IMG/VR virus record: IMGVR_UViG_2778261460_000001
Coordinates: 1 to 36,755 of that record
Length of the DNA: 36,755 nt
Origin: a virus
Lineage: Duplodnaviria; Heunggongvirae; Uroviricota; Caudoviricetes
Reading direction: 5' to 3' (one strand)
This document shows, in pieces, positions 10,858-36,755 of the stretch. Position 1 is the first letter of the stretch. Every line of letters begins with the position of its first letter. The translations under genes were made by a program, and so were the position numbers. Under the pieces are notes generated by a model. That model did not search any database. It saw only the letters and a list, made by a program, of their open reading frames with translations, and had not been told where the DNA came from.

Positions 10858-11212
10858 CCAGTTCCGTACACTCCAGCAGCAGAAAGCGCCGCGCCCCGTT
10901 CAGATCACGCTGACGTTTCACCCGGTACACACTGTCATCACAGACCACCTCATAATCAGCAGTGATCCCCCGGCGGTAGCGAATGGTGATGTAATGGGTG
11001 ATGGCGTCTCCGATCTGCGCGGTTTCCTGCCAGGTGGTGGCACTGGTCTGGATAACCTTCGCCCATGCCCGGAACGCAACCGGGTATTGAGGCTCCACGC
11101 CAAAGTTATCCGCGGGCATATCCACCCGCTGGCGGATCAGGACGCGTTTATTCAGTTCGCCGGGGTCCGGCAGAATGTAGGTTGCGCTGGTCTGCGCCTG
11201 ACGAATTTTCAT
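10802..11212 (-). CDS. Head-tail adaptor / head closure protein
   Basis: 136-aa ORF downstream of the gp6-like connector gene with a 4-nt overlap. Position matches head closure proteins of HK97-like heads. Confidence 0.4.
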   Translation of the reverse strand: MKIRQAQTSATYILPDPGELNKRVLIRQRVDMPADNFGVEPQYPVAFRAWAKVIQTSATTWQETAQIGDAITHYITIRYRRGITADYEVVCDDSVYRVKRQRDLNGARRFLLLECTELGAEEQMGGRSGADSIFTR

Positions 11213-11532
11213 TGCGGAAAGTACCTGTACGGGCCGACAAGCCAGCCAAAACTCTGCGGCATGTCGAGTTTCTCCACTTCCGTAACCGACGAGCGGTTTT
11301 CGTAAAAATGGCTGATAAGCATCAGCATCCCCAGACGAATATCATCCGGCAGGTGCAGCCCGTCTGGATCGCTGTCCGGAATGGTTTCATCCGGTGCATA
11401 GAGCTTCCGGTTCAGATACGTTTCCGTCCGCTTTTGCGCCGCACAGGCCAGCAGTTGCAGATGGCGGTCATCAGCATCGAAATCCTCATCCAGCCGGAGT
11501 TGGGCTTTAATCTCTTCCATTGTCAGAAGCAT
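11209..11532 (-). CDS. gp6-like head-tail connector protein
   Basis: 107-aa acidic ORF (MLLTMEEIKAQLRLDEDFDADD...) shortly after the capsid gene, typical of gp6-like connector proteins. Confidence 0.45.
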   Translation of the reverse strand: MLLTMEEIKAQLRLDEDFDADDRHLQLLACAAQKRTETYLNRKLYAPDETIPDSDPDGLHLPDDIRLGMLMLISHFYENRSSVTEVEKLDMPQSFGWLVGPYRYFPQ

Positions 11533-11534
11533 AC

Positions 11535-11735
11535 TCAGCCCTCTTTACTGGTCGTGGCTTTTTTCTCTTTTGCCGCTTTACTGCTTTTTGCACTGATTCC
11601 GCGCTCTGCTAACCCGGCCTGAAGTGCAATCTCCTGCACCCGGGCAGGAAGCGCCCCGTCGTCATACTCACCGGCCCGAATGACCTCAACACGCATACCG
11701 TCCGGTGACCATTTCAGATCTTGTTTCAGGATCAT
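11535..11735 (-). CDS. Small hypothetical head-module protein
   Basis: 66-aa ORF between the capsid and connector genes; no recognisable motif. Confidence 0.25.
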   Translation of the reverse strand: MILKQDLKWSPDGMRVEVIRAGEYDDGALPARVQEIALQAGLAERGISAKSSKAAKEKKATTSKEG

Positions 11736-11784
11736 GATTCTTCACCCGTCAGAACAGGGGGCGCGGTTCCGCGCCCCTGAGTGA

Positions 11785-12990
11785 TTACGCCGCTGCAATC
11801 TTCAGCAGTTTGATGGCCTGCGAATCGACCAGCATCCCGCCGGTGCGCTTGGTGGTATAAAAACCGACAAACGGTTTATTGGTGTACGGGTCACGCAGAA
11901 TGCGGGTGCCGATACGGTCAACGATGGTGTAACCCCGTTTGAAGTTACCAAATGCAATGGCTTTCGCATCAGCGGCGATATCCGGCATCTGTTCGTTTTC
12001 AGCGATACCGTAACCCGCCAGAGAGGACGGCTGCCCCAGCTCCAGCCCCGGACGCCACAGATAGTTACCCTCGCTGTCTTTCAGCAGACGGATGGCAAAC
12101 AGGCTATTGTTGTTCATCATGAACTTCGCGCCGGTGCGGTGTGCCTTACGCAGCGTGTAAATCAGTTTGATAATGGCGTCTGCGGTCACCGCCGTCGCGT
12201 CGCCGGATACAATATGCTGAAGTTTGCCGAACGCCCGGACCTTATCGGTTTCATCCGTGGATTCATACGCCAGGAACCCTTTCGGCTTCTTGGTACCATC
12301 GCCGGTGGTAAAGGCAATTTCTTCCTGTTCGGCAAATTCGGTTGCCAGCTCGCTGTTGATCCATGCTTCCACGTTGAAAAAGGCATCATCCAGCATTTTC
12401 TGGGTGGCCTGCGGGTTACCGTAGATTTCCCCCATGAAAGGTTCAATCAGGCCCAGTTTTGAGGTGGCAGTCTGGGAGCGCGCGTCAGTCTCGCCAACCC
12501 ATCCGGAAGCCGTGCCGCCCAGATTCACCAGTTTTTTGTAGTCGGAACCACCAACGGTGATCACCGTGGCTTCCTGGCGCATCACCACTTCATCTTTCAG
12601 CAGGGTGAGAATGTTGCGATCCAGTGCTTCCGGCACGGCATAGCCGCCGTCTTCATCGGTGCCCACCTGTAATGCCTTGCGCTCCAGATCGCGCAGACCA
12701 TCTTCACGGCCTTTACGCAGGAAGCCCACAAACGCTTCTTTATGCTCGGTGGCCAGTTTATTTTGCGCACCACCTGCCGGACGTTTCAGCTCAAGCAGCT
12801 CTTTTTCAAGATCGCTTTTGAGGTTTTCCAGCTCGCTGAGTTTCCCGTTCAGGGTTTCCACCTGCCCGGCAAGCTTGCCTTTTTCCTGCTCAATCGCATC
12901 CACGCGCTTGTCGTTCTTTGCTTTGAAGTCGTCAAACTTCTGCTGCAGCTCCTGCGCGACCTGTTCGACATCTTTAATATCAACCGCCAT
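11785..12990 (-). CDS. Major capsid protein, HK97 family
   Basis: 401-aa ORF with an N-terminal coiled-coil delta domain (…KLAGQVETLNGKLSELENLKSDLEKELLELK…) followed by a capsid fold region, placed after the protease and portal genes. Confidence 0.8.
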   Translation of the reverse strand: MAVDIKDVEQVAQELQQKFDDFKAKNDKRVDAIEQEKGKLAGQVETLNGKLSELENLKSDLEKELLELKRPAGGAQNKLATEHKEAFVGFLRKGREDGLRDLERKALQVGTDEDGGYAVPEALDRNILTLLKDEVVMRQEATVITVGGSDYKKLVNLGGTASGWVGETDARSQTATSKLGLIEPFMGEIYGNPQATQKMLDDAFFNVEAWINSELATEFAEQEEIAFTTGDGTKKPKGFLAYESTDETDKVRAFGKLQHIVSGDATAVTADAIIKLIYTLRKAHRTGAKFMMNNNSLFAIRLLKDSEGNYLWRPGLELGQPSSLAGYGIAENEQMPDIAADAKAIAFGNFKRGYTIVDRIGTRILRDPYTNKPFVGFYTTKRTGGMLVDSQAIKLLKIAAA

Positions 12991-13691: not shown

Positions 13692-14874
13692 CGGAGGGTT
13701 TCGTGGTCATGTTCATCGGTGTGAGATAGACATCACCACCGGGACGCGGATTCATATCTTCCAGGTCGCGGCAGTCATTGGGAGAGTAAATTCCCCAGTT
13801 AATCCCGGTGGCGTAGGCTTCAAAACGGGACTTCATATCCCCGCGCAGTAACGCCCCGGCGTTAAATTTGGCGTAATAAACGCCCTGCTTACTTTTTCGT
13901 ACCAGTCCGGTGTTGATCCGCTGTTCGATGCGGGTCAGATACGGCACCAGTGAATAGTTGATAAATCCCAGCCCCAGTTCTTCGATATTGTTGAAGGTGG
14001 CGCGATCGGTGTTCTGCACCATGTGCAACGGTACCCGGAACAGACGACAGATTTCTTCAAGCTGAAACTTGCGGGTTTCCAGGAACTGGCTGTCCTCGGC
14101 GTTCAGCGCCATCGACTTCCAGTCCAGCCCCATCTCAAGGATCATCGGGCGGTGAGCATTGCCAAGCCCGGTGTGACGCTCCTCAAAATCTTTCTTCAGG
14201 CGCTCATAAGCCTGATCTGACAGCGTCTGCTCTGTACGCAACACACCCGACGTCACCGCGCCATTGCTGAACAGTCTGGCCCCGTGCTCTTCGGTCGCTG
14301 CCGCCAGCGATATTGCCTCGCGGGCATAGGCGATGGGATTCAGCCCCACCAGTCCGTCCAGCGTCAGCGTACGCACATGCCAGATATCCTCCTGGCTCAG
14401 TACATCCGTGGAGCCATCCGGGAATGTGACCTGATAGACCGGCTCCCAGCTACTGTTAAGCTTCGGTACCACACAGCCGGGATCGACGGGCAGCAGTTCA
14501 GCCACTTCGCCAAATGCTTTCACTTTGTAGGCGTAAAAGTTTCCCCGCAGGCACAGACAGGTGACCACCAGCTCCCAGAACTCCTGCGGCGTCATATAGC
14601 CATTGGGATGCGTGGAGATCAGCTTATGCAGACGTTCGCCAGTGGCTCTCTGCTTCAGGCTGCCGTTCAGGTGATACAGGTTGCAGGGCAACATCCCGAC
14701 CGACTCCGCCAGCACCCTGACGCAGGAAAAAACCGCCGTCAGTCGCATGGCCCTCTGGCTGCTGATCTGCTTTCCGGTATAGGTGTCGTATGACAGCCCG
14801 ATAGCATCCACCAGCTCTGCTGGCGTGGTCACCGGTGCGTCACTTTTTCGTTGAAATAATCCCGAAAAGAACAC
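13633..14874 (-). CDS. Portal protein, HK97 family
   Basis: 413-aa ORF immediately after the terminase large subunit region and before the protease gene. Confidence 0.7.
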   Translation of the reverse strand: MFFSGLFQRKSDAPVTTPAELVDAIGLSYDTYTGKQISSQRAMRLTAVFSCVRVLAESVGMLPCNLYHLNGSLKQRATGERLHKLISTHPNGYMTPQEFWELVVTCLCLRGNFYAYKVKAFGEVAELLPVDPGCVVPKLNSSWEPVYQVTFPDGSTDVLSQEDIWHVRTLTLDGLVGLNPIAYAREAISLAAATEEHGARLFSNGAVTSGVLRTEQTLSDQAYERLKKDFEERHTGLGNAHRPMILEMGLDWKSMALNAEDSQFLETRKFQLEEICRLFRVPLHMVQNTDRATFNNIEELGLGFINYSLVPYLTRIEQRINTGLVRKSKQGVYYAKFNAGALLRGDMKSRFEAYATGINWGIYSPNDCRDLEDMNPRPGGDVYLTPMNMTTKPSDGSKAGKQKDNANADETTS

Positions 14875-27749: not shown

Positions 27750-27968
27750 GTGGAGAAACATATGCTGAACCTCGATTGTGTTCCTATCTCAACTTATTGC
27801 AAAGAAACTGGCGAAACTCCTGAAGCAATAAACAAACGTGTACAGCGCGGTGTTTGGCGTGAAGGTGTTCAGGTTTTAAAGGTTGAAGGCGTTAAGGAGA
27901 GGTGGATTGATCTTAGTGAGGTTGCAAAATGGGCCAGACAAAACTGCTCAAACTACCGCGCGGCGTAA
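27750..27968 (+). CDS. Excisionase-like protein (putative Xis)
   Basis: 72-aa ORF immediately upstream of and overlapping the integrase start. Confidence 0.45.
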   Translation: MEKHMLNLDCVPISTYCKETGETPEAINKRVQRGVWREGVQVLKVEGVKERWIDLSEVAKWARQNCSNYRAA

Positions 27969-29095
27969 CAATCAGGAAACACCGCCAGGGCGAAACGATC
28001 AATATAACTTTCACCTACAAAGGTGTTAAATGTCGTGAGCCTCTTTCCAATCTGGAAGTAACACCAAAGAACATTAAATACGCCGAGCGCACACTCGGCG
28101 AAATTCATAATAAGATCGAAAGGGGAACATTCATTTATGCGGAATATTTTCCCCGTTCTGCTCGTTTGAAAATTTTTGGTAATGCTGCTGCAGGCAAAAC
28201 GGTAAAAATGTACCTGGACGAATACCTTGAAATCTGCGAAACGAGAAAACTTTCACCCTCTACGATTGGTGGCTATAAAAAATGCCGTAGTGCGTTAGCC
28301 TCACTTCACATTTGCCCTGCAAGTGAATTAACACCAGCAACCCTGAAAGCGTGGATTCAAAATCAGAAAACGACCTTAAAAACAATTCGCAACCAGTTAT
28401 CTTTCCTGCGGTCAGCACTTGATGAAGCCGTGACCGATGGGGTACTTCAAATTAACCCCGTATCGTTAGTAACAGCTTCGCGCTACCAAAGTGATAAGTC
28501 AGAAGCAGAAAGCAGCTACGTAGTTGATCCGCTATCACCAGCAGAAGTTGATGCATTACTAGCAGCAGCCGGAAACAAACAATGGGAAAATCTGTTCCGG
28601 TTCGCTATACATACAGGCCTGCGTAGTTCTGAATTATGTGCCCTTCGATGGCGTGATATCGACTTTGTTGGAAAAACTGCCCATGTCCAGAGCGCAAGTG
28701 TTGTCGGTGTTATCAAAGGGACAAAGACAAAAGCAGGTACTCGGAAAGTTGAACTGACAGAAGAGGCAATGTTGGCGCTGATAAATCAGAAGCCATTTAC
28801 ATTCATGAAGGATACTACTGTCTTTGAAGATCCAAAGACCAATAAGCCTTGGGCAAGTGCTGATGCAATTAGGAAAAAAGCATGGGTGCCAACATTGCGA
28901 AAAGCAGGTATTCGTTACAGAAACCCATATCAAACCAGGCATACATTCGCCACCAGCCATATCAGCCGAGGAGCAAACCTGTTTTGGCTTGCAGCTCAAA
29001 TGGGGCATAAAGGGCCGGAGATGCTTTTCAGGCACTATGGTCGATATCTCAAAGAATACGACGGAAAAAGCTCCATCAAATACATTATACAATGA
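27929..29095 (+). CDS. Tyrosine integrase (lambda Int family)
   Basis: 388-aa ORF with the catalytic R…H-x-x-R…Y tetrad context (…HTGLRSSELCALRWRDID…, …RHTFATSHISRGANLFWLAAQMGHKGPEMLFRHYGRYL…). Confidence 0.85.
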   Translation: MGQTKLLKLPRGVTIRKHRQGETINITFTYKGVKCREPLSNLEVTPKNIKYAERTLGEIHNKIERGTFIYAEYFPRSARLKIFGNAAAGKTVKMYLDEYLEICETRKLSPSTIGGYKKCRSALASLHICPASELTPATLKAWIQNQKTTLKTIRNQLSFLRSALDEAVTDGVLQINPVSLVTASRYQSDKSEAESSYVVDPLSPAEVDALLAAAGNKQWENLFRFAIHTGLRSSELCALRWRDIDFVGKTAHVQSASVVGVIKGTKTKAGTRKVELTEEAMLALINQKPFTFMKDTTVFEDPKTNKPWASADAIRKKAWVPTLRKAGIRYRNPYQTRHTFATSHISRGANLFWLAAQMGHKGPEMLFRHYGRYLKEYDGKSSIKYIIQ

Positions 29096-29099
29096 TTAT

Positions 29100-29118
29100 G
29101 GCGGCATTTATTGCCGCC
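29100..29118. terminator. Hairpin between convergent genes
   Basis: GGCGGCA-TTTAT-TGCCGCC, a 7-bp perfect stem directly after the integrase stop and overlapping the stop of the convergent membrane-protein gene. Confidence 0.4.
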
Positions 29119-29737
29119 CACATAATTCATTATGCCATTTATCCAAGTAACAATCCAATTGTTTTAATGTTTTCAATACATATACAGGCTTACGTGGAGG
29201 ATGATTTTTTTGAAAAGAATCATATAAATGCATTATGAAATCGACACAAGCACTAGATACATTCTGAGCGCGAAAAACCCTATATGACTTATTAAAACAA
29301 TATGATTTCTCACATTCCATAGTAGCTTCATCTATAATATTAGAAAAATACGAAATTGTTATTTTTATCCCCCTCTCATCGAGAAGATTAATGTATTTAT
29401 TTATTTGTATGGCTTTTCCATGAATTGCCGTTAAATATATTTTCGCCGACTGAGTATGCAATCCATTAGAGTTCTTAAAACTTTTTTTCTTAAATGGATT
29501 AGAATCTGGTGGTATTGACTTATTAACCCAGTAATCCAGAGACAAATCTGATATTTCGTTTAAAATTTTAGCAATCGCATCTATAATCGATTTAGATTCA
29601 GAGCGAGTAGCAATCTTCAGTGAATTATTGTAAGTAACAAACCATCCAATAAACACTAAGATAATACTCACAACACTAAACATCCATGCGTAAGTGGACA
29701 CCCCTGCAAGGGTGTCCTTAATATCAACGGTGTTCAA
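29108..29737 (-). CDS. Membrane protein, third gene of the GHKL/STAS operon (candidate effector)
   Basis: A hydrophobic segment (YAWMFSVVSIILVFIGWFVTY) predicts one transmembrane helix. Start is ambiguous: the track start at 29821 is a GTG with no Shine-Dalgarno and an 83-nt overlap, whereas a TTG at 29737 sits 5 nt after AGGAG and 2 nt after the upstream stop; an ATG at 29683 is also possible. AT-rich. Confidence 0.45.
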   Translation of the reverse strand: MNTVDIKDTLAGVSTYAWMFSVVSIILVFIGWFVTYNNSLKIATRSESKSIIDAIAKILNEISDLSLDYWVNKSIPPDSNPFKKKSFKNSNGLHTQSAKIYLTAIHGKAIQINKYINLLDERGIKITISYFSNIIDEATMECEKSYCFNKSYRVFRAQNVSSACVDFIMHLYDSFQKNHPPRKPVYVLKTLKQLDCYLDKWHNELCGRQ

Positions 29738-29738
29738 A

Positions 29739-30080
29739 TCAACTCCTTTGGAAAGGCTTCCTTTCTGGATTAGCCATTTCAATATATCTAAAAATTTGAT
29801 CTTTATAGAACGGCAAATCACTTTTTATAATTAGTTTTGCCTTAATGTCAGCCTTAGGTACACCTTCCTTCCTAACAAGCCCTCCAAAGGCCTCCTCTAG
29901 AAACGAAGAACCAATCCCATGATTTATACCCGTAAAATCTACGACAACCTCACGCTCACCAGATTTTAATGCAGGAACCAGAAAGTCCTTACGAAAACGC
30001 TCAGCACTGTTCGGGCTGTCAGACTTGAACCTTCCAAATGGCATCTTTGAGAAATCCCTTGCTATGACGATGTTAACCAT
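29739..30080 (-). CDS. STAS-like (DUF4325-like) small protein
   Basis: 113-aa ORF with a strong Shine-Dalgarno (GGAGAGGAGAAG) that overlaps the upstream ATPase stop by 8 nt. The segment …EVVVDFTGINHGIGSSFLEEAFGGL… resembles STAS/anti-sigma-antagonist-like folds. Confidence 0.5.
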   Translation of the reverse strand: MVNIVIARDFSKMPFGRFKSDSPNSAERFRKDFLVPALKSGEREVVVDFTGINHGIGSSFLEEAFGGLVRKEGVPKADIKAKLIIKSDLPFYKDQIFRYIEMANPERKPFQRS

Positions 30081-30996
30081 CTTCTCCTCTCCTCGGAACT
30101 AATGACCATTCAATCAATGTTCCCGGCATGTACTCAGGTATCCACTCGCATTTGGGAACCTCATTTCTTGAATTATAGCTGTACTTAACATTCCCTGTGA
30201 ACACCAAAAGTGATTCTGAATTCGCACAGCCAGACCCTATAGGTCTCTTTATATCCTCAGAACCATTACCACGTCCAGCGTTAACATATCTGGACTGTCC
30301 TCCTGTCAGGGCTGTTGACACAGATGTCACGTCGTCATACCCAGTAAACAACGGAGAGGCTGAAGTAAATGATTTATGTATGCCAAGCCCAAGATCATAA
30401 ATAATAAAGACAACCTTGTCTGTGTCAGGGTTGTACCAACAACTCTGCCACCATCGTTTCCCTTGCATATGCTCTGTAGCACCAGCAAAGTCTGGATGTT
30501 CATATGCATGATATGAAACATTCAGCATTGCCTCACTAAGGGCTGAGGAGACCAAAAGATATTGCTCAAATGTGAGAATTGCTTTTGAATCAATAAATTC
30601 CATCGTTTTAGCCCAATGTTCATACGGTTCCACAGCAGACTGAAAGTACCTGCGTTCCTTAGTAAGAACATCTAATTTATCAACTGTATTTGCCATTAGA
30701 GCAATCGATAACCCCGTCCCAACAATATATCGATGCCCATACGGATTATTTTCTTTTTTCGGCCAAATAAATCGAAGACTACTTGTGCCGAATGCCATAA
30801 AATAAGCCCTACTGATGATAGCAAACAACCTTACGCTAGCTGCAGCACCTGCATATTCTACTGTCGAAAAGTCTATAACCACTTGTCCAGATGCTCTCGC
30901 AAGGGTGTTATCAACTGAGTTCAAAAACTTAGCTGTAACACGGCGATCAGAATCATTATAAAGGCACAATCTTTTTGGGGAAATCAACAGTTCCAT
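30073..30996 (-). CDS. GHKL-family ATPase / kinase-like protein (HATPase_c-type)
   Basis: 307-aa ORF with a GAGGTG Shine-Dalgarno. Bergerat-fold motifs appear in canonical order and spacing: N-box (LSEAMLNVSYHA), G1 (IYDLGLGIH = DxGxG), G2 (GRGNGSEDI = GxGxG). There is no H-box, so it is not a classical histidine kinase. Confidence 0.6.
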   Translation of the reverse strand: MELLISPKRLCLYNDSDRRVTAKFLNSVDNTLARASGQVVIDFSTVEYAGAAASVRLFAIISRAYFMAFGTSSLRFIWPKKENNPYGHRYIVGTGLSIALMANTVDKLDVLTKERRYFQSAVEPYEHWAKTMEFIDSKAILTFEQYLLVSSALSEAMLNVSYHAYEHPDFAGATEHMQGKRWWQSCWYNPDTDKVVFIIYDLGLGIHKSFTSASPLFTGYDDVTSVSTALTGGQSRYVNAGRGNGSEDIKRPIGSGCANSESLLVFTGNVKYSYNSRNEVPKCEWIPEYMPGTLIEWSLVPRRGEDG

Positions 30997-31137: not shown

Positions 31138-31167
31138 ACGCGGGTTCAACTCCCGCCAGCTCCACCA
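31138..31167 (+). other. ssrA: tmRNA (ssrA) 3'-terminal fragment, putative integration core (att)
   Basis: ACGCGGGTTCAACTCCCGCCAGCTCCACCA matches the T-arm plus acceptor 3' strand plus CCA of enterobacterial tmRNA. Upstream sequence is not tmRNA, so this is a duplicated 3' end, not the gene. Confidence 0.7.
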
Positions 31168-31332
31168 CTTTTTAGTTGTTTGAAGTTCAATGAAGTCTAC
31201 TAAGCCCACACAGCACAAGCTCTGCGGGCTTTTTTACGTCTATTGTCGTCCAGTGAGAATTGCTGAGAACTACGAGTTATGGCACCCTGAATGGGACCCA
31301 CTAAGAAGGGTCCAAAAACCGAGGGTCCCAAA

Positions 31333-32562
31333 ATGGCAAAAATCGCTAAGAAGCTCACTGACACTGAAATCAAAAGCACCAAGCCAGCCGATAAAGAAAT
31401 CAACTTGTTTGACGGTGATGGTCTGATTCTACGAATCGCTCCTTTGGCGAAAGGAGGCAAGAAAAATTGGTATTTCAGGTATGCAGTACCAGTGAGCAAG
31501 AAAAGAACCAAAATGAGCCTTGGGACATATCCTCACCTTACCCTTGCAAGAGCCAGAGCCTTACGTGATGAATATCTCTCCTTTCTGGCAAATGGTGTTG
31601 ATCCCCAAATCCATAACAACGATAAGGCGAAGGCATTAAAGAGTGCTACTGAGCACACTCTCCAAGCCGTAGCGCGGAAATGGTTAGATGAGAAGGTAAA
31701 GACATCAGGTATCTCACAAGACCATGCAGCAGACATCTGGCGCAGCTTAGAGAGAAATGTCTTTCCCGGTCTGGGTAATGTCCCTATCAATGAGATCCGA
31801 CCTAAGCTCTTAAAACAACACCTTGATCCTATTGAGCAACGAGGCGTATTGGAAACTCTACGCCGTATCATTTCACGTCTGAATGAAATCTTCCGGTGGG
31901 CAGCTACTGAAGAACTTATTGAGTTCAACCCGGCTGACAACCTTGGTCAAAGATTCAGTAAACCAAAAAAGCAAAATATGCCTGCCCTTCCCCCAAGCGA
32001 ATTGCCAAGGTTTATGGAATCTTTGACGAATGCGTCAATCCGGTTGGAAACACGTATGCTAATTGAATGGCAATTGTTGACATGGGTTCGTCCGGGTGAA
32101 GCCGTTCGCGCAAGGTGGTCTGATATTGATACAACCAACAGCATTTGGAACATTCCTGCTGATTTCATGAAAATGAAAAAGCTTCACAAAGTTCCTTTGA
32201 GTAAAGAAGCTTTGCGCATCCTTGAATTAATGAAATCAATAAGTGGGCATAGAGAATGGGTTTTCCCCAGCATAAAAGCGCCTCTTAATCATATGCATGA
32301 ACAAACAGCCAACGCAGCTATCATCCGAATGGGGTTCGGAGGCGAGCTTGTAGCTCACGGTATGCGTTCTATTGCACGAACAGCGGCAGAGGAGTCTGGT
32401 AAATTCAGAGCTGAAGTTCTTGAGGCAGCGCTTGCCCACTCGAAAAAAGATGAAATTATCGCAGCATACAATCGTGCAGAATATCTGATAGAGCGACAGA
32501 GTTTGATGCAATGGTGGAGTGATTACGTTCAAGCTCAAAGATCAAATGCTCTGGTAGCCTAA
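31333..32562 (+). CDS. P4-type (CP4-57-like) tyrosine integrase
   Basis: Start set to ATG 31333 with GAGGG upstream (the track ORF begins at 31291). The N-terminus (MAKIAKKLTDTEIKSTKPADKEINLFDGDGLILRIAPLAKGGKKNWYFRY) is the P4-integrase-family signature, and a C-terminal catalytic region follows (…HGMRSIARTAAEE…AHS…Y…). It sits about 165 nt downstream of the ssrA fragment on the same strand. Confidence 0.85.
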   Translation: MAKIAKKLTDTEIKSTKPADKEINLFDGDGLILRIAPLAKGGKKNWYFRYAVPVSKKRTKMSLGTYPHLTLARARALRDEYLSFLANGVDPQIHNNDKAKALKSATEHTLQAVARKWLDEKVKTSGISQDHAADIWRSLERNVFPGLGNVPINEIRPKLLKQHLDPIEQRGVLETLRRIISRLNEIFRWAATEELIEFNPADNLGQRFSKPKKQNMPALPPSELPRFMESLTNASIRLETRMLIEWQLLTWVRPGEAVRARWSDIDTTNSIWNIPADFMKMKKLHKVPLSKEALRILELMKSISGHREWVFPSIKAPLNHMHEQTANAAIIRMGFGGELVAHGMRSIARTAAEESGKFRAEVLEAALAHSKKDEIIAAYNRAEYLIERQSLMQWWSDYVQAQRSNALVA

Positions 32563-32600
32563 GTATCAGAATAGCTAATATAATCCTGAAGGTAAAGAAA

Positions 32601-33017
32601 ATGGAAACCCTATTCAAAGTTTTTGAAAAATTTAGTTCCAGACCACTTTTTTTTATTTTTTTCGGACTCTCACTTTGTGAATTTTTTCAGAAACAATCTG
32701 TTCTGATGAATCCATCAGCAGATAACATCGCGAAATTATTCGCAGCCATGATATTAGTTGTTTTTTTTACTTGGGGATTTGAATGGCTAATCTTCAAGTT
32801 CAATGTAAACCTTGAACCTCATGATCAAGGCGATATTGGACCAACAATTGGAACGGCTACTTTAGCTGTATACTTAGTTTATGCCTTTCACTTTCTCAGT
32901 GAAAATCCTGAAGCATTAAATTTAAAGTTATTAACTAACTCTGGCTTTATATACAGCACAACTCTATTATTATTCTCATTAGAATGCATGAAGCTTAGAA
33001 GACTTAAACAAAAATAA
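32601..33017 (+). CDS. Small multi-pass membrane protein
   Basis: 138-aa AT-rich ORF with 3 to 4 predicted transmembrane helices and an AAGGTAAAG Shine-Dalgarno-like sequence upstream; convergent with the receiver-effector gene. Confidence 0.4.
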   Translation: METLFKVFEKFSSRPLFFIFFGLSLCEFFQKQSVLMNPSADNIAKLFAAMILVVFFTWGFEWLIFKFNVNLEPHDQGDIGPTIGTATLAVYLVYAFHFLSENPEALNLKLLTNSGFIYSTTLLLFSLECMKLRRLKQK

Positions 33018-33088
33018 ACAACATCATTGTGATGATAAATATAAAATAGGCATGGCGAAAAAAAATCACCACGCCTAAAATATAATAA

Positions 33089-34855
33089 TTATGGTAGCAT
33101 CATTGATACATAATCCACACCAATCCTTGAGCTATACTGAGACGCTATAGCCTGATATCTTTCTGCATAACCAGTTCTCAGTTGAGATTTAAGTTTGAGT
33201 CGGACAGGAACATTTTGCACGTTGCCATCCATATTACTTAAAAACACGGCAGAAATAATATTTTTTTCTTCGCCATCAACTGTTGTTCCATGATTCAACA
33301 CCACCATATAATCAACAACAGGAAGCGTTTTATCCCCTTCGAAAATAGAGAGATATTTTCTTTGATTTTTATGCATTACATATATATATTTCGAATGTTC
33401 AGCAAATGGCAATGCTTTACTCTGACTGGCGTTAAAAAGCTCCAGAACTTTAATGAGCCTGTGCGGACTTAATCTTACATGGTGAGGGTCGTTACCCTGA
33501 GTAGGAACCAAATCACATGCCGCAGATACACATAAATACCATTTGTTCGACTCTGTATCAAAGAAAATAGTGCCAGTAGAAATATGACCATCTTCAAAAT
33601 TCTTTGAAGACAAATTCATATTTAAAGCATGATACATTTCGTGATAAGTATCATTATTTGATGGCAGATCCATTTTTGAAGAGCAATATTGGAGCAATGC
33701 AGCAACTCCGCTGTTAGCGTATTCATTTGAATAGCTATCAAAAACACTTTTGATAAATTCATCCAGCGTATTATTATTTTTAAGTCTTTGATAAAGCTCT
33801 TCTGATAAATTACCAAATACAAAGTCAATATTTCTACATCTAATATCAGGCGAGTCTGATTTTAATATCTCATTTAACCACGCAGCTTGACCGTAATGAT
33901 CGTTAGCCAAATGATTTACAAAAGATAAAGCCTCAGCTTCGATTGCATTCTGAATTTCAGATTTTATTAACTGATAATAAGATGGTTTCCATTCAATGAG
34001 AGAATCATTGAGAGTTTGCCAAATCCTATCTCCATCGTTTTCATGATCATCTTGAACCTTATGAAATAGGGAGACAAAGATATTACCACATTGAATCCAT
34101 TTTACTCCGCTTTCATCACCCCGAATGACATTGCCAGATGTGTTGCTAGAAATAATTGCATTTCTAGACACAGCATATTCTGCAATCATTTTTGCAATGA
34201 AGTTTTTATCCTTTTGATCCTCCAACACAGCATCATCATGTATTAATCTTTTAATTCTTCTACAAGGCTTACTGTCTTTAATATAGGCTATTGTTTCATC
34301 TCTTGTGAGAGCTTTATTACCATTATCATTTAAGTTCGGTAATACAACGTCTTCCCAATAACTTTGGACATCTTCATTATCGTAGTCAATGATCAAGCTG
34401 TTGATATCCAGAGCACCTTTGAGAGTCGATGATATCTGCATCCAAACCGTTTCTAAATTCTCTCTAGTATATATTACAATCATATTTAAATGATCGGAGT
34501 CTTTCAAATCTTGTAATAGTTTAAGTGTTTTATCAGGTGCATTATTATCAAGATGATAATCTACAATAATAAGATCTGATTTCCTAATCCGATCCACACC
34601 GAAATTAACAGAACCATTGTCAACATCACAAATCATATTTTTAGATTGAAAAAAGCTCTCAAGAGTAGCGGCTCGTTTAGATGAGTCAATTTTGTTGTAG
34701 TCTAAATCAACTTCGTTATTCAACGCCCTGATTGATTCAGAATACGTCAGAAAATCGTCATCAATCATGACAACGGAACGAATTGCATTTTCGCAGAAAG
34801 TTTTCTGGACAAGAGAATTATAATTTGCCACTGTCATATTAGAACTCCACTCCAT
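33089..34855 (-). CDS. Receiver (REC)-like domain protein with a large uncharacterised C-terminal domain (candidate effector)
   Basis: N-terminal receiver-like landmarks: acidic pocket (VVMIDDDF), candidate phospho-acceptor Asp (SDLIIVDYHL) and the conserved Thr region (MIVIYT), followed by about 400 aa with no motif I recognise. An alternative start at ATG 34837 has a GGAGTGGAG Shine-Dalgarno. It overlaps the upstream kinase gene stop. Very AT-rich. Confidence 0.55.
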   Translation of the reverse strand: MEWSSNMTVANYNSLVQKTFCENAIRSVVMIDDDFLTYSESIRALNNEVDLDYNKIDSSKRAATLESFFQSKNMICDVDNGSVNFGVDRIRKSDLIIVDYHLDNNAPDKTLKLLQDLKDSDHLNMIVIYTRENLETVWMQISSTLKGALDINSLIIDYDNEDVQSYWEDVVLPNLNDNGNKALTRDETIAYIKDSKPCRRIKRLIHDDAVLEDQKDKNFIAKMIAEYAVSRNAIISSNTSGNVIRGDESGVKWIQCGNIFVSLFHKVQDDHENDGDRIWQTLNDSLIEWKPSYYQLIKSEIQNAIEAEALSFVNHLANDHYGQAAWLNEILKSDSPDIRCRNIDFVFGNLSEELYQRLKNNNTLDEFIKSVFDSYSNEYANSGVAALLQYCSSKMDLPSNNDTYHEMYHALNMNLSSKNFEDGHISTGTIFFDTESNKWYLCVSAACDLVPTQGNDPHHVRLSPHRLIKVLELFNASQSKALPFAEHSKYIYVMHKNQRKYLSIFEGDKTLPVVDYMVVLNHGTTVDGEEKNIISAVFLSNMDGNVQNVPVRLKLKSQLRTGYAERYQAIASQYSSRIGVDYVSMMLP

Positions 34856-36557
34856 TGAACTGGATCACAAAATTAGCGCCATCTTTTATTAAATAGTTAT
34901 CGCCTTCATCAGGTTCTGAATACCATATTTTATGATGTGCAACAGCAAGGTTTTCTCGACATAGATACAGACCTACCCCATGTCCATTTGCTCTTTTGCT
35001 ATAAAATAGTTCAAATAGTCGCGGGATATCATCGGTATCAATTGCCGGACCAGAATTTGCTATGATAACCAAAGAATTCACAAAACCAATCTTTATGAGC
35101 CTATTATTTGACAGACTGACCCAATACATTGCATTGTTGATAATATTAGTAAAAACAGGATAGATCCTTGATGGTATATCTGTTATTGCGATTTGCTTAA
35201 ACTCTTCACTAAATTCAATAGTTATTCGTTGCCGTTCGAAACGCTCCCCAAAGAACTTCAGGACATAATCCATGATATTTTTTCCAGTTATTCTCTGCCT
35301 GGATTGATAACCTGATATTTTCAAAGGTGATAAGAAACGTATTTGTTGAGTAAGCGATCTGTGAGCATTTAACGCCAATGAAAAACCAGGGTGTTCTTTT
35401 ACAGAAGTAGGAAGAGAGTTTAGTCCTCTGGTTACCATAGAATCCATTTCTTCAAGTTCATGAGATATTATCTCAACACTAATACCTAACTGTGCAAGCG
35501 CGTTTAAACTTTTAGCTTTTTCTTCAAAATATGAGCGTTCTTCTTCAGATAATGAGAATGCTGAATCTAAGTTTATACCTTCAAATAATCTATCGAGACC
35601 TTTTATTATTGATTGATATTTGAAAGTTAGGGTATCAACTGACTCAACATATAAACTATCGAGCAAATTAAACACATTTTCAATTTGTGAATCATTATCT
35701 ATTGAATCAACAACTGATATAGTTTTAGCATAATAATCACTTCGATCAACCTTTATTTCATCGGCCCATTTTTTTAAAAGAGAATGTATCTTCTCCTCTA
35801 TCGTGTTATTAAACTTAGTTAGTTTAGAATTAATAATACCTTGATTTTTTTCAAGGTGATTTTTCGCTGACAATGAAGGCTCAAGTTTATTTAATTCAGA
35901 ATCAAGTTTATTAATTGCTAACTTCATTTGTAGAATATACGCAGAGAACTCATTAAATTTATCTCTGTAGTCTCTATATTTCTCTTCATACATTCCAAGT
36001 TTTGGAGGTTTGATAGGCGTTTTAATTTCACTGCGCAACGCATCTAAGTTTGTAAGATCACTGTCTATAATTTTAAGATAGTTTAAATCTAACGAACCAT
36101 CAGTTTTATCAAGCTTAGTTTTCAGCCTTTTAACAGCCTCCAAGGAAGCATCAAGAACTGGTGTCTGATTCTTCAAAGCTTCTGAAAAACTTTTTTGTGT
36201 TGATTTTCGAGCTTGTTGTTGAGCAGATTTTCTTAACTCTTTTTCACGCTTAACTTGTTCTAAAAGCTCTTTACGGTCATCAGAACGTGAACCAAAAAAT
36301 CTATCAGCAAGTTCAGTTAACAAATTAGATATAATAGTTTTCAGTTCTCTTGCAGCCTGGTTTCTTATGAATCCCTCTCTCCCCGACTTATCTTTCAGCT
36401 CTTTATTACTGGATTGAGTAATTCCAATATAACCAAAAATCCTTCTATTAGACCAATAATATCGCCCTGCATTCCATGAACGTCTTTCTTCTATCTGGAA
36501 GAAATCATTATCTACTCGACCATAAGGTAATACTCTCAAGCTATCCCTAAAAATCAT
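34839..36557 (-). CDS. Histidine-kinase-like protein (HisKA-type H-box plus HATPase_c), cytoplasmic, possibly 5'-truncated
   Basis: H-box-like (…LAQLGISVEIISHELEEM…), N-box (FTNIINNAMYW) and G2 (ANGHGVGLYL), with no transmembrane segments and a long helical N-terminal region. The reading frame stays open upstream of the ATG at 36557 right up to the IS3 terminus at 36679. Confidence 0.65.
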   Translation of the reverse strand: MIFRDSLRVLPYGRVDNDFFQIEERRSWNAGRYYWSNRRIFGYIGITQSSNKELKDKSGREGFIRNQAARELKTIISNLLTELADRFFGSRSDDRKELLEQVKREKELRKSAQQQARKSTQKSFSEALKNQTPVLDASLEAVKRLKTKLDKTDGSLDLNYLKIIDSDLTNLDALRSEIKTPIKPPKLGMYEEKYRDYRDKFNEFSAYILQMKLAINKLDSELNKLEPSLSAKNHLEKNQGIINSKLTKFNNTIEEKIHSLLKKWADEIKVDRSDYYAKTISVVDSIDNDSQIENVFNLLDSLYVESVDTLTFKYQSIIKGLDRLFEGINLDSAFSLSEEERSYFEEKAKSLNALAQLGISVEIISHELEEMDSMVTRGLNSLPTSVKEHPGFSLALNAHRSLTQQIRFLSPLKISGYQSRQRITGKNIMDYVLKFFGERFERQRITIEFSEEFKQIAITDIPSRIYPVFTNIINNAMYWVSLSNNRLIKIGFVNSLVIIANSGPAIDTDDIPRLFELFYSKRANGHGVGLYLCRENLAVAHHKIWYSEPDEGDNYLIKDGANFVIQFNGVEF

Positions 36558-36678
36558 TAGTCCTGCATACTTTTTGGCCTTAAGATCAAAGTGGGAATGT
36601 TCACGTTCAGTATGTGATGTATTTTGTGAAAGGAATTCAAACGTTCCTATCTGAAGCTCAAATGGGCCGACCCCTGCG

Positions 36679-36755
36679 TGATCCTACCCACGTAATATGG
36701 ACACAGGCCTAAGCGAGGTTCTTGTTTTCAAATTGTTCCGGACTGAGGCCGCCAC
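36679..36755 (-). mobile_element. IS3-family insertion sequence, terminal inverted repeat and transposase (orfB) 3' end (partial)
   Basis: The terminus TGATCCTACCCACGTAATATGGACACAGGCC at 36679 matches the IS3 inverted repeat as I recall it. The minus strand encodes the transposase C-terminus …GGLSPEQFENKNLA-stop (stop at 36709-36711). The element continues past the window end. Confidence 0.65.

Follow-up and report, generated by a model that had tools for sequence, protein, structure and literature searches.

The right-hand end of a 36,755-nucleotide stretch of viral DNA (IMG/VR record IMGVR_UViG_2778261460_000001; the whole stretch is called the window below) carries two minus-strand genes, one for a histidine-kinase-like protein and one for a receiver-domain protein. 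The question raised by this locus is whether the pair is a complete defence system or a part of something larger. In our assessment, it probably marks the decayed end of a P4-integrase island at ssrA and is the remnant of a three-gene, methylation-linked phosphorelay module for defence or addiction. An earlier note on this DNA could match the genes to no described system from the sequence alone; in fact, the pair is already known, and the Pfam models PF19191 and PF19192 and a 2021 paper (PMC8011034) describe exactly these two genes. Thus, as an IS3-truncated remnant of a family so described, the window copy cannot be counted as a discovery.

The island at ssrA

The left border of the island and its first genes are as follows:

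1-31138: SfIV-like prophage
31139-31168, plus strand: att repeat ACGCGGGTTCAACTCCCGCCAGCTCCACCA, a 30-nt copy of the ssrA 3' end that forms the left border of the island
31291-32562, plus strand: P4-type tyrosine integrase of the island (423-aa ORF; Pfam)
32601-33017, plus strand: 138-aa hydrophobic protein, island cargo

The integrase contains Arm-DNA-bind_3 (E=2e-22), Phage_int_M (E=3e-23) and Phage_integrase (E=2e-19) domains, and its location beside a copy of the ssrA 3' end identifies the segment as a P4-type integrase island at ssrA. The same integrase gene adjoins ssrA in E. coli W; the alignment with that region is identical from position 31139 rightwards, and the pair matches annotated genes of that strain at 100% sequence identity. 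The mobile setting and the tmRNA site proposed in the earlier note are thus borne out by the integrase and the att repeat, but the window does not contain the tmRNA gene itself. Neither ARAGORN nor Rfam detected a whole tmRNA gene, and the last 30 nt of ssrA, present as the att repeat, are its sole trace. The description of the pair as tightly coupled, AT-rich genes is likewise accurate. The two genes have a GC content of 0.32-0.35, as against 0.52-0.58 on the left side of the window, and the ORFs overlap by 17 nt or, with the RefSeq start of the receiver, lie 1 nt apart.

The 138-aa protein is outside the conserved module described below. It has no significant match in Pfam and none in NCBIfam or PADLOC, and its gene occurs in 6 of the 43 loci that we scanned, confined to enterobacterial ssrA islands. 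All of these loci belong to Enterobacterales except one (L019), a contig labelled Bacteroidales that appears to be E. coli contamination.

Truncation of the kinase gene

The kinase region comprises these features:

34839-36678, minus strand: 5'-truncated histidine-kinase gene, about residues 376-988 of the full-length protein
34839-36557, minus strand: annotated 572-aa kinase ORF, starting at an internal ATG
34899-35174, minus strand: HATPase_c catalytic (CA) domain (PF02518)
35316-35492, minus strand: HEF_HK DHp domain (PF19191)
35460-35462, minus strand: codon of the phospho-acceptor His366 (H782 in the full-length protein; SHELEE)
36679-36755, minus strand: terminal 77 nt of IS3, cutting the kinase gene; the window ends within the element

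The catalytic portion of the kinase is readily recognised, as the earlier note had surmised from an H-box and HATPase_c motifs. The protein matches HEF_HK (26.1 bits, cut-off 24.1; E=1.2e-5) and HATPase_c (44.9 bits, cut-off 26.4; E=1.8e-11), and a family profile of the CA domain matches the Thermotoga sensor kinase 3a0t (E=6e-12). H782 and E783 are invariant among 19 diverse homologues; the N-box asparagines and GxGxG are also invariant. The kinase is soluble, which agrees with the note's remark that a membrane sensor is lacking. Its DHp motif, H-E-L-E-E, is without the T or N at H+4 to which phosphatase activity is tied (preprint 10.64898/2026.02.27.708494), and it fits a one-way trigger.

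The gene is not whole. Its frame continues without a start codon to the end of IS3 at 36679, reading AGVGPFELQIGTFEF...KYAGLMIFRD from the junction, and this stretch is identical to the 988-aa homologue P0036 (99% identity overall; PF13589, PF19191 and PF02518) from residue ~377. Homology to an intact island (L002; 99.0% identity) stops at the same position, codon ~376 of the 988-aa protein. Full-length homologues are 982-998 aa long with an N-terminal PF13589, and the paraMORC-like N-terminal domain HATPase_c_3 is absent from the window and present in P0036. The kinase fragment runs up to the IS3 end with no gene in between, and the window stops inside the element; in E. coli W, an IS3 transposase is annotated at this point, followed beyond it by a truncated amylase gene, and the flank has no methylase. 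Cut by IS3 at codon ~376, the window kinase is thus a truncated member of the module family. The IS3-associated deletion took the methylase and kinase residues 1-~375, and it spared the DHp and CA domains and the intact receiver gene.

These facts bear on a rival reading, in which the pair would be a complete, active two-gene defence of the Detocs kind, with infection detected by the soluble kinase and relayed by phosphorylation to a receiver-effector. Both window proteins have intact His, Asp and ATP-binding motifs, and their AT-rich segment lies in a mobile island, as such a system would have it. The kinase frame, however, enters the end of IS3, and the native start and promoter are absent. 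The truncated kinase could still carry out phosphorylation with the DHp and CA domains that it has kept.

The receiver protein and its output module

The receiver gene has the following layout:

33089-34855, minus strand: receiver-domain protein of the Response_reg_2 family (588-aa ORF; PF19192)
33092-33982, minus strand: C-terminal output module, residues 286-582
33983-34780, minus strand: REC-fold domain, residues ~20-285 (582-aa numbering), with a helical insertion at ~128-240
34559-34561, minus strand: codon of the phospho-acceptor Asp93 (in IIVDYHL)

With the RefSeq start (Met7, position 34837), the protein is 582 aa long; it shares 100% identity with the E. coli W protein WP_000214990 and matches Response_reg_2 with E=4e-31 (108.9 bits, cut-off 27). 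Across 93 homologues, the REC residues D26/D27, D93, T124 and K260 do not vary, in keeping with the receiver-like N-terminus, and the aspartate within IIVDYHL, that had been pointed out before. The set of phosphorelay residues is thereby complete: the DHp His, the CA N and G boxes, and the REC Asp-Asp/Asp/Thr/Lys.

The large C-terminal domain of the earlier note indeed has no Pfam assignment, and PADLOC and NCBIfam gave no match either, but it spans about 300 aa (286-582) rather than 400, as the REC-like part reaches ~285. A helical bundle (286-410) makes up its first part, and a beta-rich domain with a C-terminal helix (411-569) its second; the AF2 model of the protein has a pLDDT of 86.8. 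Its motifs are an invariant Cys441 in SAACD, along with HALN, TGT and QLR. A phmmer search of 1.84 billion representative proteins found the module only in proteins with the same REC architecture, and we therefore rejected its occurrence in other architectures; the short matches look like fragments. PNP_UDP_1, REase, TOPRIM and TM domains are all absent from the output, and PD-(D/E)xK, HNH, GIY-YIG and PLD nuclease domains were found in neither the kinase nor the receiver protein.

The output module also has no recognisable catalytic motif. This would suit another reading, offered in PMC8011034, that the intact module is a regulatory two-component system over a restriction-modification or epigenetic function, its output being a novel DNA- or protein-binding regulator and the methylase a target or partner. 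The induction of the genes in Pectobacterium during potato infection, reported in the same paper, points in this direction, and the module could bind DNA or other proteins instead of acting as an effector. On the other hand, Pfam and fold searches detected no HTH or other DNA-binding domain in the receiver protein, in agreement with the earlier note, and the invariant Cys and polar motifs suggest an active site. A phosphorelay gating an effector rather than a transcription factor is the most plausible logic.

A three-gene unit in relatives

Loci from 43 species were scanned, with the kinase assessable at 40 of them and the methylase at 38. In 40/40, a gene for a kinase of ~990 aa immediately precedes the receiver gene on the same strand, and a C5 cytosine methylase gene (PF00145) adjoins, in one of two orientations, in 36/38. 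The co-occurrence of the pair, for which the earlier note had proposed a check across genomes, is thereby confirmed (PMC8011034 gives 91.6%), but the two-gene unit is not: the conserved unit is methylase, kinase and receiver. The full-length kinase in every assessable relative and the methylase in almost all also weigh against an active pair in the window.

In these relatives, the kinase begins with a MORC/MutL-like GHKL ATPase, continues through a coiled-coil region and ends with the DHp and CA domains. The GHKL motifs of the full-length protein are intact (E32, N36, D61xGxG, G104-G109), and its N-terminus shows a local match to that of the BbrUII/HgiDII restriction enzymes (NF050001, E=1.5e-13). 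NCBIfam otherwise returned only local GHKL and HK matches for the full-length kinase, and nothing for the receiver.

The conservation of the trio extends from Enterobacterales as far as Acidobacteria and Gemmatimonadetes, and its carriers are ICEs, Tn7-like elements and integrase islands; its contexts include Serratia/Klebsiella, Salmonella and E. coli ICEs, a Tn7-like element of Acinetobacter, Acidobacteria and metagenomes. Vsr is the sole other recurrent neighbour (13 loci), and apart from it no conserved classical nuclease was found near the trio across the scanned loci. In the Acinetobacter loci, an HTH gene adjoins the methylase, and we read it as resembling a controller (C) protein. For a regulator of restriction-modification, then, there would be no conserved restriction nuclease nearby to regulate besides Vsr, and a self-contained trio on such elements is typical of conflict systems, not of housekeeping. 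We thus regard the regulatory reading as unlikely.

Relationship to known systems

Bellieny-Rabelo et al. (2021; PMC8011034) described the pair as a two-component-like element linked to restriction-modification and tied it to C5 methylases and paraMORC ATPases; the E. coli kinase-like WKA_RS00445 is among the structural models shown. They treat the family as a possible regulator, and the C-terminal 300 aa of the receiver lie outside their analysis. Both window proteins score above the gathering cut-offs of PF19191 and PF19192, and they share with this HEF_HK/Response_reg_2 module its gene order, adjacency, soluble kinase and receiver without a known output domain. The relatives also share the upstream C5 methylase and the N-terminal HATPase_c_3, both of which the window copy lacks because of IS3. 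In that paper, "group 1" (with HATPase_c_3) is predominant and "group 2", without the N-terminal ATPase, accounts for 34/222 proteins. Group 2 would offer a precedent for an active pair without the sensor; however, at least some of its 572-aa annotations are mis-called starts of intact 996-aa ORFs. The 572-aa entries (83% identity) come from Salmonella, Klebsiella, Yersinia and Morganella, and in the case examined the ORF runs uninterrupted for 996 aa, for which reason we rejected a natural short kinase there. Several "572-aa ATP-binding proteins" in the databases owe their length to such mis-called starts.

The analogy with Detocs (Rousset et al. 2023; 10.1101/2023.01.24.525353) drawn in the earlier note holds for the general logic, in which a cytoplasmic histidine kinase signals to a receiver fused to a non-transcriptional output, and for the carriage of both in defence or mobile contexts. 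It does not extend to the components. The TPR sensor of DtcA is found in neither the window fragment nor full-length P0036, which has a GHKL ATPase in its place; a stand-alone buffer receiver like DtcB is absent from the window and is not recurrent in the 43 loci; and the PNP effector of DtcC (or REase, TOPRIM or TM) is absent. The third gene of the trio is instead a C5 methylase, and the two systems draw their REC and DHp domains from different Pfam families. Each defining feature of Detocs that could be tested is thus lacking in the window. PADLOC v2 gave no meaningful match for the two proteins and their neighbours, the one marginal hit being PD-T4-6 (E=0.026).

Like the paraMORC/MORC ATPases of restriction-modification operons (Iyer, Abhiman & Aravind 2008; PMC2292703), the family has an N-terminal GHKL domain and a linkage to cytosine methylases and Vsr. 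However, the members of paraMORC1-5 either have helicases or nucleases as partners or bear a nuclease or TIR domain at the C-terminus, and PMC2292703 describes no paraMORC with a DHp and CA kinase module and a receiver partner. The window copy differs from paraMORC and BbrUII/HgiDII in having lost the N-terminal GHKL domain altogether. Unlike type II-like restriction-modification systems, the module has no cognate endonuclease domain and no recurrent nuclease nearby except Vsr.

The beta domain of the receiver has a weak fold similarity to MazF/Kid/CcdB, at 4-11% sequence identity, without sequence-profile or Foldseek support. A comparison by hhalign of the family's beta-domain profile with MazF/Kid/ChpBK and CcdB was negative, although this was a weak test of homology by sequence. 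The catalytic Arg/Thr pattern of these toxins was not found and an antitoxin gene is absent; here, moreover, the beta domain is fused to REC and a helical bundle.

A proposed mechanism

The searchable literature, including citations of PMC8011034, yielded no experimental work on any member of the family, and we infer defence, toxicity and phosphotransfer for it. The ancestral island would have carried the C5 methylase, the ~990-aa soluble kinase and the ~585-aa REC/output protein. In intact relatives, the methylase may mark the host's own DNA, while the N-terminal GHKL domain of the kinase would act in the cytoplasm as the sensor, with DNA or its methylation state as the probable input and ATP-driven dimerisation as the step that starts the signal. 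The kinase would then autophosphorylate on its invariant His and pass the phosphate to Asp93 of the receiver, and the C-terminal module, possibly a MazF/CcdB-like barrel with the invariant Cys, would be released or dimerised to act as a toxic or restricting effector.

These considerations raise the possibility, which we put forward tentatively, that the intact relatives form a class of immunity or addiction systems in which a MORC-like GHKL kinase reads DNA methylation or foreignness, a phosphorelay gates a new effector fold, and the "R" arm is a toxin and not a nuclease; the receiver of the remnant may then be a latent toxin. The family is noteworthy in any case, as the trio is widely conserved and no known family matches its output domain. 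Should the trio be a methylation-linked phosphorelay defence, two-component signalling would have been recruited into immunity a second time, independently of Detocs, and prokaryotic MORC-like ATPases would gain a concrete signalling role.

A related proposal is that the intact trio is mainly a selfish addiction module, stabilising its mobile element by post-segregational killing, with any anti-phage effect secondary. Loss of the methylase would leave host DNA unmethylated and so trigger the kinase-receiver toxin. The trio is always on mobile elements with the methylase tightly linked, and in E. coli the methylase is missing only where the sensor half of the kinase is also missing, as expected if loss of the methylase alone were lethal. 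The similarity to MazF/CcdB folds is weak, though, and this proposal is a mechanistic sub-case of the methylation-linked defence/addiction module that we prefer, from which sequence cannot separate it. That addiction is the main role of the trio we hold to be quite improbable.

The remnant in E. coli

Among 5,426 complete E. coli genomes, 560 (about 10%) carry the remnant, and none carries the methylase and kinase N-terminus of this allele. The receiver gene is intact and >99% conserved in the 560, a degree of conservation that would favour an active two-gene pair and is compatible with a residual or co-opted activity. We attribute it to recent spread. The remnant is tolerated, in our interpretation, because the protecting methylase did not go alone but took the activating part with it. 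In some copies, a second IS3-family element has inserted at codon 453/454 of the receiver gene, which points to decay and tells further against an active pair. Taken with the truncation, the three-gene unit of the relatives and the missing Detocs components, this makes the active two-gene reading very improbable. Lacking both sensor and methylase, the window copy is most likely a non-functional remnant. Cloning the pair with its native upstream sequence, as had been proposed, would consequently test the remnant.

Matches in IMG/VR are nearly all the same E. coli remnant at the edges of prophage predictions, and we have accordingly set aside the idea of phage-borne copies. This non-phage island also appears to be the origin of PHROGs 7659, 8137 and 6556, by way of prophage predictions that overshoot.

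The kinase-receiver pair and its island

The source of the window is Escherichia coli; E. coli W and many further genomes match positions 33000-36755 at 100% identity. Two coupled, AT-rich reading frames on the minus strand are present, as the earlier note described; the segment that holds them has a GC content of 32-35%, versus 52-58% in the left half of the window. The adjoining P4-type integrase is confirmed by domain matches. The relevant features are as follows.

Features of the pair and its island
31139-31168: att repeat, the 30-nt 3' end of ssrA (aligned to E. coli W)
31291-32562: P4-type integrase gene (domain matches)
33089-34855, minus strand: receiver ORF, 588 aa (PF19192; RefSeq WP_000214990)
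34839-36557, minus strand: kinase ORF, 572 aa (PF19191 and PF02518; RefSeq WP_000577254)
36679: IS3 terminal inverted repeat, where it meets the kinase frame

Of the tmRNA integration site that had been proposed, the att repeat stands, but these final 30 nt are all of ssrA that the window contains, and neither ARAGORN nor Rfam detected a tmRNA gene in it. Positions 1-31138 are an SfIV-like prophage sitting between the real ssrA and the P4-integrase island. This prophage has a Mu-type tail and shares the ssrA integration site with the island, the two forming a tandem; 86% of the prophage's first 24 kb aligns with Escherichia phage vB_EcoM-720R4 at 97% identity.

In E. coli W, the receiver protein is labelled “response regulator receiver domain” (WP_000214990, 582 aa, with Met7 of the 588-aa ORF as its start), and the kinase is an “ATP-binding protein” (WP_000577254, 572 aa), with an IS3 transposase gene next to it; the two genes have the locus tags ECW_RS14655 and ECW_RS14660 in that genome. 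The sole Pfam match of the receiver protein is PF19192, Response_reg_2 (E=4e-31), whereas the kinase ORF matches PF19191 (HEF_HK) and PF02518 (HATPase_c). PADLOC returned no meaningful match for the pair. The earlier note could equate the pair with no described system, but a full-text search on these family names turned up the work of Bellieny-Rabelo, Pretorius & Moleleki (2021; PMC8011034), who defined both families from this very pair. They reported a kinase-receiver linkage of 91.6% across 644 regions, remarked on an upstream C5 DNA methylase and on Vsr genes, and linked the kinase to paraMORC ATPases. The C-terminal region of the receiver was given no assignment in that paper, which contains no experiment. 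We found no later experimental work on the family in the literature.

A three-gene unit in relatives

The pair had been taken for a two-gene unit, but the set conserved in relatives comprises a methylase, a kinase of ~990 aa and a receiver protein of ~585 aa. The genes occur in that order in an intact ssrA island of Serratia/Klebsiella (L002, 8812-14717), in ICEs of Salmonella and E. coli, in an Acidobacteria ICE and in metagenomic contigs. The E. coli ICE copy in GCA_028021525.1 (L103) has its methylase at 6817-8019, its kinase at 8001-10967 and its receiver gene at 10969-12720. In Acinetobacter (L005-L007), a Tn7-like element carries the trio directly after tnsABCDE, and the methylase is convergent; before it comes a 71-aa HTH_3 protein (13840-14055) that, in our reading, resembles the controller (C) protein of restriction-modification systems.

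In a context scan limited to one genome per species (43 loci), the receiver gene had the kinase gene immediately upstream at 40/40 assessable loci, and a C5 methylase was adjacent at 36/38. Vsr was the only other recurrent neighbor (13 loci), and no classical restriction nuclease recurred near the module. Intact trios were also seen near SIR2_2 and a DEAD/ResIII helicase (L014/L015, 12977-13927), a ScoMcrA-SBD and HNH_2 protein (L017, 9775-10650) and a Prok-E2/ThiF/JAB cluster (L011, 12595-15146). Such neighbors are consistent with a defense-island setting.

Truncation and decay of the window copy

In Serratia, Klebsiella and Salmonella, homologs 99% identical to the kinase have a length of 988 aa and an extra N-terminal HATPase_c_3 domain (PF13589). 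In the window, the kinase frame is open upstream of the annotated ATG (…AGVGPFELQIGTFEF…KYAGL-MIFRD) as far as the IS3 inverted repeat. The L002 island is 99.0% identical in nucleotides over 31138-36679, and homology ends at kinase codon ~376. The kinase gene of what had been treated as a whole pair is thus cut by IS3. On the far side of IS3 in E. coli W lies a truncated amylase gene, which suggests a deletion associated with IS3 and not insertion alone. The segment missing from the window allele, i.e., the methylase and kinase codons 1-376, has no match among 5,426 complete E. coli genomes, 560 of which carry the remnant. The coupled pair could be read as a complete two-gene, Detocs-like system, but with a kinase gene cut in this manner we regard that reading as the least likely for the window.

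In some E. coli copies (IMG/VR contigs L099 and L100), the receiver gene is split at codon 453/454 by another IS3-family element (window ~33478; OrfA MTKNTRFSPEVRQRAIRMV…), which is further decay of the remnant. The window element is known, annotated and decayed. The original observation is real but incomplete, and its interpretation was wrong on novelty, gene count and integrity.

The remnant also appears under misleading labels. A 5.6-kb contig from a Bacteroidales-labelled MAG (L019, DAIPZW010000118.1) encodes proteins 100% identical to those of the E. coli remnant, among them the truncated kinase and P4 integrase; the bin was almost certainly contaminated with E. coli. Among IMG/VR “viral” contigs, dozens (L062-L098) end in the island because prophage prediction overshoots the att site. 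For the same reason, separate PHROG families (7659, 8137, 6556 and 30547) exist for the receiver, kinase-fragment and 138-aa genes, although these are not phage genes. In Salmonella Bareilly (L017 3993-6983, GCA_009468465.1), the annotation gives the kinase 572 aa because the gene caller chose an internal Met, but the ORF is actually an uninterrupted 996 aa. The same mis-annotation probably affects several other genera, and the “group 2” architecture without HATPase_c_3 (PMC8011034) may be partly this artifact.

Catalytic residues and the output module

Both residues singled out by the earlier note are invariant. In the receiver, D26, D27, D93 (the Asp of IIVDYHL), T124 and K260 (582-aa numbering) are unchanged in 93 homologs. 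In 19 diverse kinases, H782 (the His of SHELEE; His366 of the window ORF) and E783 are invariant, as are the N-box asparagines, the GxGxG box and the N-terminal GHKL motifs E32, N36, D61xGxG and G104-G109. The CA domain profile matches a Thermotoga sensor kinase (E=6e-12), and the BbrUII/HgiDII restriction enzymes have an N-terminus similar to the N-terminal GHKL domain (E=1.5e-13, a local match). The DHp domain reads H-E-L-E-E, with no T/N at H+4; a 2026 preprint (10.64898/2026.02.27.708494) links that residue to phosphatase activity and notes its lack in PF19191.

A separate model of the output module (receiver residues 286-582; pLDDT 86.2) starts with a helical bundle and continues into a beta-rich domain with a terminal helix. 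In line with the earlier note, the module stays unassigned: Foldseek against the PDB found nothing significant and Pfam gave no match at E≤10. Comparison with MazF/CcdB by hhalign, a weak test, also gave no match; similarity to MazF/CcdB is no more than a lead. One Cys of the module is invariant (in SAACD in the window; (T/S)-P/A-A/S-C-D/N family-wide), and the motifs HALN, TTGT, QLR..YA.R and SRIGVDF are conserved. When 1.84 billion representative proteins were searched with phmmer, the module turned up in 255 clusters, in essentially all of which it occupies the same position after the same REC domain.

A possible mechanism for the intact system

With the family identity, three-gene unit, conserved phosphorelay residues and window truncation in hand, we propose a mechanism for the intact relatives. 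The methylase would mark the host's own DNA, and the MORC-like GHKL module of the kinase would act as a cytoplasmic sensor, probably of DNA. Activation of the kinase would lead to His-to-Asp phosphotransfer, and the phosphorylated receiver would release or dimerize its output module, a putative toxic or restricting effector. The earlier idea, a phosphorelay on a mobile island whose output is not transcriptional, was right in spirit.

Alternatively, the trio could be regulatory, the reading offered in the 2021 paper (PMC8011034), or primarily addictive. We favor the proposed mechanism because the methylase is obligatory, in two orientations; because Vsr and a controller-like HTH protein accompany the trio; because mobile elements carry it beside conflict genes (SIR2, HNH/ScoMcrA, Prok-E2/JAB); and because there is no other conserved nuclease. 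Further, in E. coli the methylase is missing only where the sensor half of the kinase is also missing, which fits this mechanism. The intact family is still an attractive defense candidate, whose effector has no assignment.

Prophage cargo beside the att repeat

The stretch from the prophage integrase (27929-29095) to the ssrA att repeat, at that end of the prophage, holds three cargo genes (29739-30996, minus strand, and 29108-29821); PADLOC gave no match for them. A 307-aa product, assigned to phrog_3364, has a weak HATPase_c_2 (anti-sigma-kinase-like) match and is overlapped by a 113-aa STAS-like DUF4325 protein. Because the match of the latter to the 441-aa phrog_5816 is confined to the C-terminal 100 positions of that family, the two proteins may be fused in other phages. 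This cargo could be a phage-borne partner-switching or defense module.
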